DNA of 31,498 nt from Thermoplasmatota archaeon (GTDB lineage: Archaea; Thermoplasmatota; Penumbrarchaeia; Penumbrarchaeales; Penumbrarchaeaceae): assembly GCA_030595585.1 (NCBI GenBank), contig JAUVCY010000001.1, positions 1-31,498 on the forward strand. Direction: 5' to 3'. Below the pieces are notes generated by a model that was not told where the DNA came from, ran no database searches, and saw only the letters and a program-made list of their open reading frames with translations. Below are positions 5,798 to 18,476 of the stretch, one piece after another (positions within the stretch are counted from its first letter, which is position 1; every line of letters begins with the position of its first letter). Made by a program: the position numbers and the translations under genes.

Positions 5798-7252
5798 ATG
5801 GCGGGGCTTGTGAGGCTGTTTCTGCTGGAGGAGCTCAGGCTCCGTTCCTCGTTCTCATCAGCATTCTCGCTCCTTCTGTTCCCGCAGATGGTATTCCTGG
5901 GCGCCCTGGCAGGGTACGTCTTCGTCCCGGTCATAGCCTATTCCATCACCTACGAGAACCTCCATACGGCGATCATGACGGGGCTCTTCCTCTTCGGGAT
6001 ATCCATGGGCGGCCTCGCATTTCTGGGAAAGGATTTCATCGAACGGGCTCTGGGACCGGTGACCATGCTCGCGGCGTCGGTGATGTACCAGCCCGTGAGC
6101 CACAGGAGGATGTATATCTCATACTTCATCCACGACCTCATATTCTACATCCTCCTGGTCCTGATCCCCCTCTCGGCAGGCCTCGGCCTGGGAACGGTTG
6201 CAAGGGGAATGGACCCATGGAGGTACCTCCTGATATGCACTCACCAATGGTCCGCGTTCCTCATGGGCATCTCGCTCAGCCTCCTGGTCTCATCGGCCAT
6301 GGCACACAGGCGCAGGCCCATGCTCCTCATGATAGGGGTGGGTTTTATCCCGCTCATATCGTTACAGGTCTTTACGGGCAGGTTGGATGCCTTCGTCATC
6401 CCCCTGCTGGGCATTCTCGAGAACAGCTGGGCCTACCTCCCGTTGTCCCTTGGCGTGTCGCTGTTCTACATCGCTCTGGGCGTATTCATCTTCGACGGGG
6501 GCACCATGAACGTGACCACGGGAGCTGTGGGGTCGTATGTCTCAATTTACAGGAGATTGAACAATGTTATGACCCCGCTGAAAAGGGGCCTGTTCTCAAG
6601 GGAGGTGATCAATCTCATAAGGGGCAGGGGTTACATCAGGATCATATTCTCACTTGTCATACCCATGGCCGTGATACTGGCAATGGCGGGGATCATCGGA
6701 GGTATAGAGGGGGCCCCGATCCAGTTCAACATGGTGTTCTTCTCGGTGATGGTATCTTTTTTCACCGTATCGATCTACTCCAACCTGGTGAACATGGATT
6801 ACCTCGATTTCGACCAGACCCTTCCGATCACCACCCCTGCGATGATAAGGATGAAGCTGCTGGGACACGTGTTGATATCCACGCCCATATCGCTGGTTGT
6901 GGTGCTTGTCATTGCGGCCCTGCTGGGAGAGTGGAGCGGCATCCTCATCGGACTCCCGGTGATGCTCGTGTCCATTCCCTACATGGGCTTTGTCACAGCC
7001 TATCTGACCGGGCTCTGGACGAATTCCATGCTCTTTGATTCCACGGTGTTCATGAAATACCTGCTTTTCACGGTTCTCCCCCTGATGTCCGCAACGGTCC
7101 TCTCCTACCTTATGGAGAGCATGTTCTGGGTCTCGCTTGTGGGGCTTGCAGTGGTTGTCAGCGTGGAACTGGGAGCAATAATGCTGCTATCTCGTGGCAT
7201 TGAGAATAAGTGGAGCGATGCGAACCTCTCCAGCGGAAGCTTCAGGAGATGA
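5798..7252 (+). CDS. Multi-pass membrane protein (about 12 TM), ABC-2/exporter permease-like
   Basis: 484 aa with two halves of about 6 hydrophobic helices separated by a polar loop with 'LFSREVINLIR', a pattern typical of duplicated ABC-2 permeases. Family assignment is tentative. Confidence 0.6.
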   Translation: MAGLVRLFLLEELRLRSSFSSAFSLLLFPQMVFLGALAGYVFVPVIAYSITYENLHTAIMTGLFLFGISMGGLAFLGKDFIERALGPVTMLAASVMYQPVSHRRMYISYFIHDLIFYILLVLIPLSAGLGLGTVARGMDPWRYLLICTHQWSAFLMGISLSLLVSSAMAHRRRPMLLMIGVGFIPLISLQVFTGRLDAFVIPLLGILENSWAYLPLSLGVSLFYIALGVFIFDGGTMNVTTGAVGSYVSIYRRLNNVMTPLKRGLFSREVINLIRGRGYIRIIFSLVIPMAVILAMAGIIGGIEGAPIQFNMVFFSVMVSFFTVSIYSNLVNMDYLDFDQTLPITTPAMIRMKLLGHVLISTPISLVVVLVIAALLGEWSGILIGLPVMLVSIPYMGFVTAYLTGLWTNSMLFDSTVFMKYLLFTVLPLMSATVLSYLMESMFWVSLVGLAVVVSVELGAIMLLSRGIENKWSDANLSSGSFRR

Positions 7253-11292: not shown

Positions 11293-12528
11293 ATGGCCAA
11301 AGAGGTCTACGGAACGGTGGTCCTTGCGGGGACGGCCCGAATAGCAAGCCAGATCAGGAGGGGAAAACGCAGAGACCTCTATCACAGAATGAGAAGACCA
11401 CATCTTTGGAAGATGGATACGGAAGCTCTGGAGGCCAACCTCGCCTCCGTGATCAACAGGGATGACTACATCGTGGGCGAGAACAAATCACTGCTCTACC
11501 TGCACCCTTCCCTCACCTCCGTCAGAAATATAAATTTCCTGAAAAGGGTCCTGTACTTCGCGGGGAAGACGGGGGACCGCCTCTACAGAAGGAACAAGCG
11601 TGATCTGCTGCTGTTCCTCTCCCGGGAGGGCAGGTCCCCGATCTCCCTGGTGATACAGAATTTGCTTCTATCCGATCACATCGATCCGGACCACCTTGTC
11701 GTGGTGGGGCCCAGGAGACAGCTGAAACACGAGCTGGAGCGAAGCGGTTTGGCCGGGGTCAGGGTCCTGGAACAGGGCAGCACCCTCGGGAGGAACCTCA
11801 TCAAGGGAAGGGAGGCGTTGATCGACGGATCATACGATGGGGAACATATCCTTTTCATTGGAGGGGACGTGCCGCTCCTTACCCCGAAGGGCATATCCGA
11901 TTTCATAGAGCGAAGCGACGTGAAAGCCTTCGAGGGCGATATCATCTGGGGGATGGGGAGCAGGGAACAGCTGGGAGAATATATCGTCGAGCACGACGTG
12001 GAACATCTGGGCTCCGTAGGGCCGAACCATCCAAAGAAGGGAAATCTCAACAAGTTCGGCATACCGCTTATCGACGACAGGGGGGTCTTCGGAAAGGGTG
12101 GAATGAGGAGAGAGCTCATGATGGGCAACCTGTTCCTGTACCGTACCTCATCGGTCAACCCAAAGCTGGTCGACCGGTTCTATTCGCTTCGCAAGATGGG
12201 CGCGAACCCGCTGGCCTACCCCTGGTTGATGTGGCACTTCGGTGCCCCACTGCTCAGGGCGGTCAGGTGGAAGCTCACGATCTCGGAGGCGGAGAGGGCC
12301 TTCTCAAAGAACGCCGGGATCGACCTGAGGGTGGGGTATGCCCCACCGGAGATCACCCTGGACCTGGACTCATATTCCGATCTCAGGCGGTTGAGCGGAG
12401 TATACTTCTCGAGAGAGGGGATGGACATCAACCTGGAGATGAGCTTCAGAAAGTTCCTCAGGCAGAAACGAAGGGAAAGGGGCGGACCCCTGGGCATCAG
12501 CAGGAAAAAAGTAAAAGGAGATGGATGA
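11293..12528 (+). CDS. MobA-like NTP-transferase (GT-A fold) family protein with two large N-terminal insertions
   Basis: VVLAG...GENKSLL, LVVVGP, EQGSTLGRNL, ILFIGGDVPLLTP, GNLFL, FYSLRK, PEITLDLDSYSDL. Confidence 0.75.
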   Translation: MAKEVYGTVVLAGTARIASQIRRGKRRDLYHRMRRPHLWKMDTEALEANLASVINRDDYIVGENKSLLYLHPSLTSVRNINFLKRVLYFAGKTGDRLYRRNKRDLLLFLSREGRSPISLVIQNLLLSDHIDPDHLVVVGPRRQLKHELERSGLAGVRVLEQGSTLGRNLIKGREALIDGSYDGEHILFIGGDVPLLTPKGISDFIERSDVKAFEGDIIWGMGSREQLGEYIVEHDVEHLGSVGPNHPKKGNLNKFGIPLIDDRGVFGKGGMRRELMMGNLFLYRTSSVNPKLVDRFYSLRKMGANPLAYPWLMWHFGAPLLRAVRWKLTISEAERAFSKNAGIDLRVGYAPPEITLDLDSYSDLRRLSGVYFSREGMDINLEMSFRKFLRQKRRERGGPLGISRKKVKGDG

Positions 12529-13906
12529 CCATTACCTGCTGATGAGCCCTTTCAGGTTGAGGGATCGGGATATGGGTGCACAGTTCTGTCAGCTGGAGCG
12601 GTCCCTGATATTCAATGAGGCAATGAGCCATACCGGTTTCGTTCACTACGTGGGAACCAATACGTTCAAGCTTTTGAAGTCCAAGTTCACGGAGGTCTAT
12701 GGGAGCTACGTTTACACCGTTCCACGCGACCTCCGCTCCTCGATAGATGAGGGCAGCTTCATATCGGTGGAGCCTGGACGTGTTTCCGAGAGGATCTCGG
12801 TGGATCGGGGCCGTTTCGTCAAGGGGAAGGAGGAGCCCAGGAAACTGCTGGTGGCCGAGGTGGAATCCGCGGCCCCTGCGGTGCTGGCCCTGCCCTCCCC
12901 CGAGCTTCCCAGGGACGAGTTCCTCGACAGGATATCGAGATCATGGAGATCTGCCCAGGAGGATATGCTGGACAAGGTGATGGCGCTTCTGATGGTGTCG
13001 GCCCCATCATCGCTGTACGGGGGCGGGGGCATCGGCTCGGAGGGGCTTGAGGTAACAAGGGACCTGTCCAAGGGGACGCCCCGTAACGTTGCAGATACCG
13101 TTCTTGCCCAGCTCCCCGCCGAGTTCCGGATAAGGTCCAGATCGCCATACTACTTCACCAAGGTGGATTCGCTCACCACCGTGAGGTCCATAGGGAGGAA
13201 CAGGTCCGATGAGGGGTGCTTCACGTTGGTCCATCCCCACCGTGTTACCGACGCGTGGACCAGGGAGAAGATACCCATCCAGCTTCCGTTCATCCTCAGG
13301 GAGGCCCAGTTCAGGGGCCGCCTTCCGGAGCTGGACCTGGACGTTCTGGATTTCCAGCTGACCGCGCTGTATACTCCTCCCCCGGCGGAGAACATGGTCG
13401 AGGAGATGATGGGCAGGGTGAAGAAGAGGGGAGAGTCCCTCATGTTCGACGCGGTCGGGCTGGGGCTGCCAGACCAGATGGCCTCCGTGAGGATCGCGTT
13501 ATCGCTGGCCAGGTTGAACGTTGGGAGGGTATTTCGCACGGGAAAATACGTGAGGCCCCTGGAGAACCCCCTGGACGAAGGAGAGCGGCTGTACTACGCT
13601 CTGATGGAGCAGGGAATGGAGGAGGTGGGGAGAAAGAAGGAGGAGGAGAGGTACGGGGGGATGAGGTCCCACCCCTGGAGGGAGAGGCTGAAGGACCTCG
13701 ACAGGAGGATATACTATCGACTGAGGATGTCTGCCGAGGAGACAGGTGTCGATCGGGTCCCCAGGGAGAGCATCATGCCTGATATCGAGAGAAGGACGAT
13801 AGACAAGGCGCTGGATCGGCTGAACCGGTACGGCTATATTCTGTTCATGAAAGGCGGCACGGAGATCAAGGTGGTGGTGGAATCCTCCCCCGAGGACCAC
13901 TCTTGA
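12521..13906 (+). CDS. Hypothetical protein, probable degenerate MCM-like (OB + inactive AAA+ + winged helix)
   Basis: The CDS is well supported (461 aa, host-like codon use, 8-nt overlap with upstream gene). MCM resemblance is by eye only: OB-like N-terminus, DKVMALLMVS, QMASVRIALSLARL, C-terminal IDKALDRLNRYGYI; no Walker A/B. Confidence 0.5.
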   Translation: MDDHYLLMSPFRLRDRDMGAQFCQLERSLIFNEAMSHTGFVHYVGTNTFKLLKSKFTEVYGSYVYTVPRDLRSSIDEGSFISVEPGRVSERISVDRGRFVKGKEEPRKLLVAEVESAAPAVLALPSPELPRDEFLDRISRSWRSAQEDMLDKVMALLMVSAPSSLYGGGGIGSEGLEVTRDLSKGTPRNVADTVLAQLPAEFRIRSRSPYYFTKVDSLTTVRSIGRNRSDEGCFTLVHPHRVTDAWTREKIPIQLPFILREAQFRGRLPELDLDVLDFQLTALYTPPPAENMVEEMMGRVKKRGESLMFDAVGLGLPDQMASVRIALSLARLNVGRVFRTGKYVRPLENPLDEGERLYYALMEQGMEEVGRKKEEERYGGMRSHPWRERLKDLDRRIYYRLRMSAEETGVDRVPRESIMPDIERRTIDKALDRLNRYGYILFMKGGTEIKVVVESSPEDHS

Positions 13907-13982
13907 TCTGAGCCGATACCTCGGCGAAGATAAGACTATTCTCCGGAATAGTCGTCATCTGAGCGAATACTTTCGCGAAGGT
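13906..13982 (+). ncRNA. Candidate structured 3'-UTR element: two covarying G.A-tandem hairpins flanking an 8-bp hairpin
   Basis: 24-nt copies ATCTGAGCCGATACCTCGGCGAAG (13906-13929) and ATCTGAGCGAATACTTTCGCGAAG (13957-13980); central GACTATTC-TCCG-GAATAGTC (13934-13953). Structure is seen directly; RNA function is inferred. Confidence 0.5.
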
Positions 13983-13998
13983 TGGATGAATCTACCGA

Positions 13999-15066
13999 TT
14001 ACTCCTCTTCGTCGTCTCCACCGCCAGCACCCCACCCGATCTTGTCCCAGTTCCTGGACAGTTCCGCCTTTATGCCGGGACCTATCGCCGATACCTCCAT
14101 CTTCTCCTTTCTGATCATCCTCTCGACGAAACGTATCCTCCGCCTCAACCCCGCCCTGTTGGCGTTCTGGATCTCCAGTCCCGGCCTCCTGTTCACCTCG
14201 ATGACCAGAACTCCTTTTTTATCGTCCACCGCCAGGTCCACGCCTGCAAAACCCATTCCCATGGCGTCCGAGGCGGCGGATGCCGTCTCCATGATCTCCT
14301 CCCACATGTTGAAGCCGAAGCCGACCAAGGAGCGCCCGGTCCCGGGATGCTTTCTGGAGCTTTTCCTGCCTATCGTTCCCGAGATTATACGCCCCTCCGA
14401 TATCGATATGCCTGCAGCGAAGGCGCCCTGATGGACATTTGCTTTGCCACCTGAACCCTTGGTGGGAAGCCTGGTCATCGCCATGATCGGGAATCCCTTG
14501 AAGATCACCACCCTGATGTCCAGAAGGCCCATCGTCGCCAGCTCCCTCAGCCTTCTGGAGAGGATGATCCTCTCCTCGATCATGGCGGTATCAGGGGTGC
14601 CTCCCAGATATCTGCCGTTGATTATCCTCATCGCATGGCGGACCAGATAGGGGGCGTCAACGCCCTTTCCCGATATGAGTATGAACTTCCTGGCAACGAT
14701 CCTCTGCACCACGAGGATCCCGGTGCCGCCGTGGCCCTGGCTGGGTTTGACGACGAACCCCTCTTTTCTGGTGGCCAGCCAATCCTGAAATGGTATCAGC
14801 TCCTCCTCGGAGGCCACCGTCATCAACGTCTCGGGGATCGGGATCCCCGCCTGGCCGAGTATCCCCTTCTGGTACAGCTTGTCCATGGACTCCATAAGGT
14901 CCTGGGGGTTGTACTTCTTCAGGTACCCCCTCCAGGTATCCTTTTCGAGTATGTCGCCCTTCCCGTAGAAAGAGACGGGAAGTCTCACGCTCCCCTCGCG
15001 CCTGAGCTCCCGCTGGACCTGCCTGAACCGGTAGGGCCTCCTTAGCAGACGCCTGAACCATCCCAT
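13999..15066 (-). CDS. ATP-grasp ligase, alpha-L-glutamate ligase-like (RimK-related / sugar-transfer-associated ATP-grasp type)
   Basis: KKYNP...DKL, GIPIPETL, FVVKPSQGHGGTGI, MIEERI, DIRV, AMTRLPT..SGGKANVHQGA, GVDL, VIEVNRRPGLEIQNAN. Start ATG 15066 after AGGAG. Confidence 0.88.
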   Translation of the reverse strand: MGWFRRLLRRPYRFRQVQRELRREGSVRLPVSFYGKGDILEKDTWRGYLKKYNPQDLMESMDKLYQKGILGQAGIPIPETLMTVASEEELIPFQDWLATRKEGFVVKPSQGHGGTGILVVQRIVARKFILISGKGVDAPYLVRHAMRIINGRYLGGTPDTAMIEERIILSRRLRELATMGLLDIRVVIFKGFPIMAMTRLPTKGSGGKANVHQGAFAAGISISEGRIISGTIGRKSSRKHPGTGRSLVGFGFNMWEEIMETASAASDAMGMGFAGVDLAVDDKKGVLVIEVNRRPGLEIQNANRAGLRRRIRFVERMIRKEKMEVSAIGPGIKAELSRNWDKIGWGAGGGDDEEE

Positions 15067-17759: not shown

Positions 17760-18476
17760 TCACTCGTAACTGGTGCTGAACATCTCACCGTGGCCGGGGA
17801 TGATGTGATCGCAGTAGATCATCAGGTCCTTCAATGACTTGATGGAGGTCACGCGGCCGCGAACGATCCCCTCCTCATCCTCTTTCCTGAAGGCATCCAT
17901 TATCTCTTTGACCTGGGGGTTATCTCCGCTGTCAAGTGCGTATCCGACGATGCCCACGATCTTGCCCGCCAGGTGTTTCGTATCCGGGTCCAGAAGCTCC
18001 TCTCTTGCCGGCAGGTGGACCAGGAGTACCAGCGTGCCCGGCGCGGGAAAGGGGAGCCTCACGAGCTTGAGGTATCTGTCGATCCAATGATATGGGGTGC
18101 CGATCATCACCTTTCTCACCGCTCCCAGGGTCCCGCCCCACTCCTCCTCACGTATGTGCTGAAGGGCATTTACGAATATGCTGTCATTGCCGTTGAAATT
18201 GGAGTTCGCCCTGGTGGTGACCAGCACGTTCACCTTCTCCAACGGGACCGAGATCTCCCTCATCCTATCCCTGATATCCTGTTCCTGGTCCTGGGAACCC
18301 GAGTCCACGGACACCGTGTTGGTGGAGGTCTTGACCAGCGTGACCGACGATCTGGATGTGGAGCTTCCCCTCCTGCCCGAACCAACCGCCACCGGCACTA
18401 TCGACATCTTCCTGGTCCCGAAGTCATCGTTGTACTGCTGGACCACGCCGTCATCCCCTACGCTTGTTTCGGACAT
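17760..18476 (-). CDS. Metallo-beta-lactamase-fold protein with degenerate metal-binding motifs (probable pseudoenzyme)
   Basis: SSVTLVK...VDSG (motif 1) and DHIIPGHG (motif 5) are retained; HxHxDH is replaced by R-A-N-S-N-F. Confidence 0.75.
   Translation of the reverse strand: MSETSVGDDGVVQQYNDDFGTRKMSIVPVAVGSGRRGSSTSRSSVTLVKTSTNTVSVDSGSQDQEQDIRDRMREISVPLEKVNVLVTTRANSNFNGNDSIFVNALQHIREEEWGGTLGAVRKVMIGTPYHWIDRYLKLVRLPFPAPGTLVLLVHLPAREELLDPDTKHLAGKIVGIVGYALDSGDNPQVKEIMDAFRKEDEEGIVRGRVTSIKSLKDLMIYCDHIIPGHGEMFSTSYE

Follow-up and report, generated by a model that had tools for sequence, protein, structure and literature searches.

Non-motor relatives of MCM and the archaeal gene examined here

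Archaeal replication is usually described in terms of one homohexameric MCM, and additional copies of MCM are for the most part attributed to mobile elements. In eukaryotes there are also MCM-derived proteins that have lost the ATPase motifs and act as partners or regulators rather than as motors, namely MCMDC2, Drosophila MEI-217/MEI-218 (mei-MCM) and MCMBP (Pfam MCM_bind), in roles (meiotic recombination and MCM chaperoning) for which archaea have no obvious counterpart. MCM2 of Methanopyrus kandleri, a non-standard extra MCM-like protein in an archaeon, is reportedly enzymatically inactive. Its structure (3f8t), in which this archaeal MCM homolog is monomeric, is described with A, B and C subdomains plus an AAA+ domain (PMC4619765). 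Here we characterize a gene at 12542..13906 (forward strand) of a 31,498-nt stretch of DNA (the whole stretch is hereafter the window) from a Thermoplasmatota archaeon (assembly GCA_030595585.1, contig JAUVCY010000001.1, positions 1 to 31,498). The identity of its product as an MCM-derived protein, with an OB fold, a minimal AAA+ core, a lid and a winged helix in MCM order, seems to us very probable. The explanation that we favor overall, and that we hold to be likely, is a diverged, ATPase-dead MCM derivative (a pseudo-MCM) acting as a non-catalytic binding module.

Compared with the canonical archaeal MCMs (6mii, 4r7y, 4r7z and the N-terminal part MthMCM-N, 1ltl), the family of the window protein has the same domain order, a lid and winged helix that are homologous by profile, and structural Z-scores of 12.7–13.7, whereas it is ~250 aa shorter, is without the A and B subdomains, has no helix-2 insert (h2i) or pre-sensor-1 beta (ps1-beta) hairpin in the predicted model, and is without Walker A/B, sensor 1, the Arg finger and the sensor-2 arginine, with no score against the Pfam MCM model PF00493. 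The superposition on M. kandleri MCM2 reaches Z 12.1 over 273 residues, and both proteins are non-standard archaeal MCM-like proteins; however, 3f8t has the A and B subdomains that the family is without, and its match to the family profile (E 1.7) is weaker than those of eukaryotic MCM4/7, which speaks against a specific kinship. MCMDC2, mei-MCM and MCMBP share the same non-motor theme, but they belong to a different domain of life and the likeness is by description only. No description of the family was found in full-text literature searches, and, as neither Pfam nor NCBIfam offers a model for it, the annotation is "hypothetical" everywhere.

The reading frame from 12521 to 13906 on the plus strand comprises 461 codons without a stop, with stops present on the opposite strand in the same register, so the 461-aa open frame claimed in an earlier reading of the sequence alone (the sequence-only reading) is real as a frame. 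Its start is most likely not the ATG at 12521 but that at 12542, giving 454 aa from M8, because the first residue of all homologs is the equivalent of M8 and because codon 1 is not ATG in a genome holding a 98% identical copy of the protein. The ATG at 12542 lies 13 nt past the stop of the upstream gene. An exhaustive phmmer search of 1.84 billion representatives gave 64 homologs at E ≤ 1e-3, and the ratio of nonsynonymous to synonymous substitution rates (dN/dS, Nei-Gojobori) is 0.07 and 0.11 against two orthologs, which together mean that the frame is more than a product of chance. By these sequence measures the gene is real and under strong purifying selection. Synteny is kept at 41–47% protein identity, the gene is single-copy, and the proteins of the family are ~440–475 aa long. 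None of the RNA runs searched for the locus contains it.

Profile and structural evidence for descent from MCM

The sequence evidence for kinship with MCM comes from profiles. When the window protein is searched alone against Pfam, NCBIfam and the PDB with phmmer, only chance-level matches are returned (PASTA, S17e and amylopullulanase), and these candidates were dropped on account of their scores. The protein by itself falls below Pfam MCM_lid (PF17855), and PF00493 matches neither the window protein even at E ≤ 10 nor any of 73 family members at E ≤ 1. A profile from 28 close relatives (alignment A1) likewise finds no match among PDB sequences, and a search for related loci with A1 recovers the close clade only. 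The MCM signal arises from the addition of distant members in alignments A2 and A3, which join the close clade to distant phmmer relatives (22–35% identity), A3 holding the family of 73 sequences; a second profile search for homologous proteins with A3 gained nothing further.

The family profile matches ~30 distinct MCM chains among the PDB sequences, with E-values from 1.9e-4 and with MCM7, 4, 6, 3, 8 and 2, the Sso and Pfu MCMs and M. kandleri MCM2 all represented. The matches to MCM are confined to profile positions ~232–434, which correspond to the AAA-lid and winged helix. Apart from the MCM chains, the C-terminal winged helices of RPA32 are also matched, and no Cdc6 or MoxR occurs among the matches of family-profile searches of the PDB or of the Thermoplasmatota genomes, so that a best profile match to an unrelated family was not seen. 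Taken individually, 5 of the 73 members match Pfam MCM_lid (best E 8.9e-6), one matches MCM_WH_arc (E 0.031), two match RPA_C, and MCM_OB matches none of the 73.

Within our sample of 301 Thermoplasmatota genomes, the A3 profile finds not only full-length family members but also, in dozens of genomes, frames of ~700 aa that it matches over their C-terminal ~160 aa (E-values of 1e-6 to 6e-11); 24 such frames were retrieved, of which 22 were confirmed as canonical MCM. Alignment of A3 to these 22 MCMs with hhalign gives a probability of 96.3% and an E-value of 1.6e-9 (family positions 255–438 to MCM positions 533–711), and the C-terminal part of the family alone gives 97.0% and 9e-11. The pairing of QMASVRIALSLARL with the MCM sensor-2 helix, which the sequence-only reading had drawn by eye, is reproduced by hhalign. 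For the OB part and the core part alone, the best local alignments, which are not significant, are colinear with MCM, pairing "...ALQLvScP" with "ALQLFGG" of alpha-0 and "LPxEF" with "APRgIY". In language-model features of the Atlas, the MCM and MCM_bind clusters (MCM_bind score 0.83) rank behind unnamed archaeal clusters, with MCM_bind among the closest neighbors that bear a name, and serve as a lead only.

The predicted structure extends the likeness across the chain. AlphaFold2 with the 73-sequence alignment (model m272468544ef8) yields a predicted local distance difference test score (pLDDT) of 86.8 and a predicted template modeling score (pTM) of 0.81, superseding a run with 28 close sequences that reached pLDDT 68. 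Against the PDB, Foldseek returns 134 matches at E ≤ 1e-3, of which the top 50 are all MCM subunits, the best having an E-value of 2.7e-9 and a probability of 1.00, with 390–566 aligned columns. Re-scoring with VIA-align gives Z-scores up to 14.6 over model residues 31–37 to 363–380, extending to 452–454 where the matched chain includes the winged helix, and the matching range in the MCM chains begins at the OB fold (e.g., SsoMCM 107–604). In an exhaustive comparison by VIA-align with 48,161 chains, independent of Foldseek, 11 MCMs lead with Z 10.7–13.6, among them PfMCM-AAA (4r7z_A) with Z 13.6 and a root-mean-square deviation (rmsd) of 4.1 over 211 residues; the next AAA+ proteins are RavA (8.6), ORC/Cdc6 (7.5–8.5) and BrxL (8.2). 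The N domain alone (residues 32–121) superposes on MthMCM-N (1ltl) and on the archaeal MCM-N 4me3 with Z 7.8 and rmsd 3.2, and the C-terminus superposes on the winged helices of ScpA, RPA32, ORC2 and Cdc6 with Z 7.5–8.6. An Atlas shape search gives two unnamed archaeal clusters of 412–414 aa, again a lead only. Both Foldseek and VIA-align work from one and the same predicted model, whereas the profile evidence and the Pfam MCM_lid matches are independent of each other.

It is this agreement of profile, MCM_lid, Foldseek and VIA-align that supports the MCM-type succession of OB, AAA-like and winged-helix parts proposed in the sequence-only reading. The structure check by AlphaFold and Foldseek placed MCMs at the top and recovered the OB/AAA+/winged-helix topology. 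At the level of sequence the proposal stands for the lid and winged helix, and for the OB fold and core it is supported by predicted structure only. The elements that had been listed by eye (a beta-rich N-terminus, a helix followed by YGGGGIG, a later helix, and a C-terminal helix with a wing) are all present and coincide with the secondary structure of the model.

In the model, a predicted OB-like beta barrel occupies residues 34–120 (12620..12880, plus strand), as read from its DSSP assignment and from VIA-align superposition on MCM-N, with strands at 38–43, 48–52, 60–66, 80–93 and 107–119 (GFVHYV ... SFISVEPGRV...). The tip of its long hairpin (80–93/107–119) is mildly basic, with K+R at 0.18 against D+E at 0.10. 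There follow the linker between the N and C parts and helix alpha-0 (residues 121–160, 12881..13000, plus strand), delimited from alignments A1–A3 and column conservation, which form the best-conserved stretch of the family, with a mean column conservation of 0.52 vs. 0.30–0.42 elsewhere. Together with the glycine loop, the consensus reads LPxPxLxxDEFLxRxSxxWxxAxxDxLDxxxALQxLSCPxSxYGxGGIGS, and in the model the helix at 150–159 (MLDKVMALLM) leads into the glycine-rich YGGGGIGS.

Residues 161–265 (13001..13315, plus strand) make up what appears, from the strands and helices of the model, from VIA-align and from motif counts, to be a degenerate AAA+-type alpha/beta core of minimal size. It comprises only ~105 residues between strand 1 and the lid, with five short strands (172–176, 210–215, 231–236, 255–258 and 263–264) and three helices (187–196, 218–226 and 240–249), and it is marked by an invariant GG(I/L)G(S) loop ahead of strand 1, an invariant E231 and PIQLPF. 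The lid (residues 270–375, 13328..13645, plus strand), assigned as homologous to the MCM lid from hhalign, the PDB profile matches and Pfam MCM_lid, contains DLDVLDFQLTALYTPPP and the equivalent of the sensor-2 helix, MASVRIALSLARL (helix 321–332 in the model). The winged helix (residues 385–455, 13673..13885, plus strand; from the model, VIA-align and hhalign) has helices at 392–408 and 424–436 (IDKALDRLNRYGY) and wing strands at 440–443 and 448–451, with a conserved LxRLNRYGYILF in the region of the recognition helix. Across the 73 members G169, G170, E231 and P287 are invariant, and W142, D148, S160, P162, G172, P199, P256, R331 and L434 are nearly so, the conservation of G169, G170 and E231 extending down to ~20% identity. 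The pattern points to the surface formed by the linker, alpha-0, the GGxGS loop and E231 as a constrained, family-specific site.

The catalytic motifs of MCM are missing throughout. Each of the patterns GxxxxGK[ST], G[DE]PGxxKS, DExDK, SRFD and A[AS]NP occurs in 0 of the 73 members, so the claim that the window protein has neither Walker A nor Walker B holds for it and for all its relatives. In a positive comparison the same motifs (Walker A, Walker B, Arg finger and sensor 1) are found in 21–22 of the 22 canonical Thermoplasmatota MCMs, with Walker A GDPGxxKS in 22/22 and Walker B DExDK in 21/22. The loop at the P-loop position varies in sequence and length across the family. The arginine of the MCM "RQLE" motif (sensor 2) is without a conserved counterpart, and hhalign pairs R331 with the R of "IRLAEA". 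No member has zinc-finger CxxC pairs in its first 140 aa (0/73), by a pattern that was too strict as a control, since it matched only 4 of the 22 canonical MCMs; family members have on average 1.1 Cys in their first 130 aa. Only ~30 residues precede the OB fold, which means that MCM subdomains A and B, as defined in PMC4619765, are missing. In the DSSP assignment helix 218–226 is uninterrupted and only five residues separate helix 240–249 from strand 255–258, so the model would appear to leave no room for a helix-2 insert or a pre-sensor-1 hairpin, both of which are required for unwinding in real MCMs (PMC4359371). From the absence of the motifs we infer that ATP hydrolysis and translocation have probably been lost. 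Judged on its sequence, the protein fails the catalytic hallmarks of an MCM helicase and should not be filed as one.

The upstream partner, the proposed mode of action and competing explanations

Directly upstream of the MCM-like gene lies a gene for a 411-aa protein with a predicted MobA/GlmU-like nucleotidyltransferase fold (11293..12528, plus strand; assigned from Pfam, Atlas, a PDB profile and synteny). In the window's GTDB family this partner gene (395–413 aa) stands directly upstream of the MCM-like gene in all loci tested, with the two genes abutting or overlapping, and the partner is found in 20 of 23 genomes of that family vs. 0 of 277 other sampled Thermoplasmatota, in a search that used a single protein rather than a profile and that diverged partners could escape. 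The partner reaches E 1.5e-4 against Pfam NTP_transf_3, which is below the cut-off, and 0.95–0.96 to NTP_transf_3 clusters in Atlas features; a partner profile matches GlmU in the PDB at E 1.5e-3, with GGDVPL aligned to GDTPL of GlmU. An ~85-aa insertion separates the N-terminal VVLAG motif from the remaining fold, and past the glycine motif comes an RRRKRR tract. Arginine-rich tracts occur at both termini, and the tail at the C-terminus is basic. One partner ortholog (G059:C14:158743-159915) has an in-frame TGA, for which a sequencing error, a pseudogene or recoding are all possible. The phyletic and neighborhood check was run, and it returned this family-restricted partner together with a coexisting canonical MCM.

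For the mode of action we put forward, as a tentative proposal that is somewhat less probable than its opposite, an adaptor or regulator without catalytic function, in contact with nucleic acid, with a replication protein and, within this lineage, with the partner. The pseudo-MCM would work by binding rather than by catalysis, with neither ATP hydrolysis nor DNA unwinding. By analogy with the use of MCM winged helices, its OB fold and winged helix may bind nucleic acid and/or a replication protein such as canonical MCM or Orc1/Cdc6; in MCM, the counterparts of the modules that it keeps bind ssDNA/dsDNA (OB) and protein or DNA (winged helix). The skeleton of lid and core could still pack against AAA+ neighbors, and the surface of linker, alpha-0, GGxGS and E231 would then be a lineage-specific interaction site. 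In the window's Thermoplasmatota family a complex with the co-translated nucleotidyltransferase-like partner is probable. The sequence-only reading had envisaged a nucleic-acid-binding scaffold or regulator, a role that we likewise regard as inferred.

Several points weigh against the explanation as a diverged, ATPase-dead MCM derivative. Significant sequence similarity to MCM is restricted to the third of the protein that holds the lid and winged helix, and in hhalign against the canonical MCMs the OB part alone (probability 0.2%) and the core alone both stay below 1%, for which reason the assignment of OB fold and core rests on one predicted structure. The whole-chain TM-scores from Foldseek are low (0.26–0.37), since the domain orientation differs and the core is reduced in size. 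Where the lost motifs would lie is read from the order of secondary structure (DSSP), not from coordinates. The tip of the OB hairpin is only mildly basic and is not conserved, and the invariant GG..G(S) loop with E231 marks a constrained site that could still bind a ligand. Around the distant members of the family, the neighboring genes have no relation to replication. Finally, partners, oligomeric state and nucleic-acid binding of the pseudo-MCM are proposals only.

Among the competing explanations the one that survives best, though we consider it unlikely, is that the protein serves mainly as a platform without catalytic activity in a two-gene system formed with its partner, e.g., aiming nucleotidylation at nucleic acid or protein, with no link to replication or to MCM. 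The abutting or overlapping genes, their constant adjacency in the window's GTDB family, the occurrence of each in 20 of its 23 genomes together with the absence of the partner from the other 277, the metal-site motif GGDVPL that the partner keeps in alignment with GlmU, and its arginine-rich tails, suggestive of nucleic-acid binding, would all be accommodated by such a system. However, distant MCM-like members occur without the partner and beside other neighbors, which argues that the ancestral function is independent of it, the single-protein search may have missed diverged partners, and no known system of such composition is found in PADLOC or PHROGs. The partner is absent beside the distant members, and the 389-aa neighbor of one of them (L008) is unrelated to it. 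The contexts of the distant members are mixed, with a position after a GCV_T-like gene in two cases, an integrase with restriction-modification genes, TIR/AbiTii, and SIR2.

Still less probable is a pseudo-MCM that forms a ring- or clamp-like DNA-loading platform and brings the nucleotidyltransferase-like partner to DNA or the replisome. If true, this would be a new archaeal replication-linked modification or regulatory module, parallel to eukaryotic MCMBP and mei-MCM.

Of about the same low standing, or slightly lower, is the explanation that the protein is a winged-helix DNA-binding transcription regulator whose N-terminal two thirds, of MCM origin, act solely as a dimerization or sensor module. 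The C-terminal 70 aa do superpose on many winged helices of the MarR/ArsR/IclR type with Z 7.4–8.5, the helix LxRLNRYGYI is among the conserved motifs, and one distant member carries the annotation "biotin operon repressor" from its source. By sequence, however, the winged helix aligns with the types found in MCM and RPA32, whose chief role is in protein interaction, and the strongest conservation lies in the linker, alpha-0 and core rather than in the winged helix. No repeated operator-like motif is known near the gene, although no search aimed at one was made.

A cryptic NTP-binding or NTP-hydrolyzing enzyme, in which the YGxGGIGS loop and E231 take the place of Walker A and Walker B, is very improbable. 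It is true that G169, G170 and E231 never vary across the 73 sequences and that G172 and S160/P162 hardly do, that the glycine loop stands just ahead of core strand 1, and that a K/R directly ahead of helix alpha-1 is retained in many distant members. But the glycine loop precedes strand 1 rather than following it and is thus not in the P-loop position, the loop that is in that position varies in length and sequence, and no member has GK[ST], an acidic pair after strand 3, an Arg finger or sensor 1.

Least credible of all is a merely superficial MCM likeness in a protein from another AAA+ clade (MoxR/RavA, Orc1/Cdc6 or BrxL/Lon-like) fused to an unrelated OB fold: RavA, ORC/Cdc6 and BrxL do match parts of the model at the scores given above and the h2i and ps1 hairpins that mark MCM are not in it, but the MCMs are ahead by ~5 Z units and colinear from OB to winged helix, the N domain taken by itself resembles those of MCMs, the profiles match only MCMs and RPA32 winged helices with no Cdc6 or MoxR, and members match Pfam MCM_lid and MCM_WH_arc.

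With the diverged, ATPase-dead MCM derivative as the preferred explanation, we turn to the surroundings of its gene. The block conserved in the window's GTDB family runs through a C25 peptidase, the partner, the MCM-like gene, an ATP-grasp gene, AMP phosphorylase and ribose-1,5-bisphosphate isomerase, and continues with a 238-aa protein, archaeosine tRNA-guanine transglycosylase (TGT), a 2-hydroxyacid dehydrogenase and a PrkA-like AAA protein. Three distant members (L007, L070 and L071) sit amid integrase, restriction-modification, TIR/AbiTii and SIR2-like genes and a large number of small hypothetical genes, which points to mobile or defense islands as carriers of part of the family, or to a mobile past. 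PADLOC has no match for the window protein, the partner or five distant members, and PHROGs gives three chance-level matches only (E 0.02–0.09), to distant members. A reading as a defense system was rejected, given the absence of a PADLOC match and the position of the window copy in a block of core genes.

Three further features of the window were noted. The convergent gap between the MCM-like gene and the ATP-grasp gene that ends at 13999 (gap at 13906–13982) folds into three hairpins, two of which are near-identical AUCUGAGC..GAAG(A/G)U units; the minimum free energy is −35.4 kcal/mol (z −3.35), a value that none of 200 shuffled sequences reaches. These hairpins could be a bidirectional terminator or another structured element. 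The plus-strand gene at 5798–7252 encodes a protein of 484–488 aa that has no Pfam or NCBIfam match and is kept in the syntenic block of relatives (L001:1265-2731 and L002:1402-2856). The 238-aa protein is encoded at 17760–18476 on the minus strand and has no Pfam match, its match to metallo-beta-lactamase B3 being at chance level (E 0.036); relatives have a 228-aa counterpart flanked by the genes for ribose-1,5-bisphosphate isomerase and archaeosine TGT.

Coexistence with canonical MCM and meaning for the family

Of the 23 genomes sampled from the window's GTDB family, 20 have a full-length member, and scattered full-length members occur in three further Thermoplasmatota families. All named records are metagenome-assembled genomes of uncultured Thermoplasmata/Thermoplasmatota, and the locus is present in cold-seep and marine-sediment metagenomes. 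A canonical MCM of 707–729 aa is also present in 15 of 24 family genomes and in 7 of the 8 high-quality ones. Since sister genomes hold both proteins, the pseudo-MCM is an addition to the canonical MCM. Replacement of the canonical MCM was considered for the window's own assembly, which is 76% complete and in which no canonical MCM is assembled, and was rejected, as the sister genomes carry both and this assembly is simply without the MCM contig. The best PF00493 matches in that genome, at 20–26 bits, are other AAA+ proteins (contigs C29, C36 and C330), including a 713-aa frame on C330.

The window protein would represent a chromosomal, vertically inherited and constrained MCM derivative that has shed the catalytic and DNA-translocating elements and kept the OB fold, lid and winged helix. 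If the preferred explanation is right, archaea, like eukaryotes, would have recruited "dead" MCMs for non-motor roles. Its best-conserved surface, formed by the linker, alpha-0, the GGxGS loop and E231, is new, and naming the family would help its annotation and give biochemists a starting point for testing MCM regulation or loading in Thermoplasmatota.

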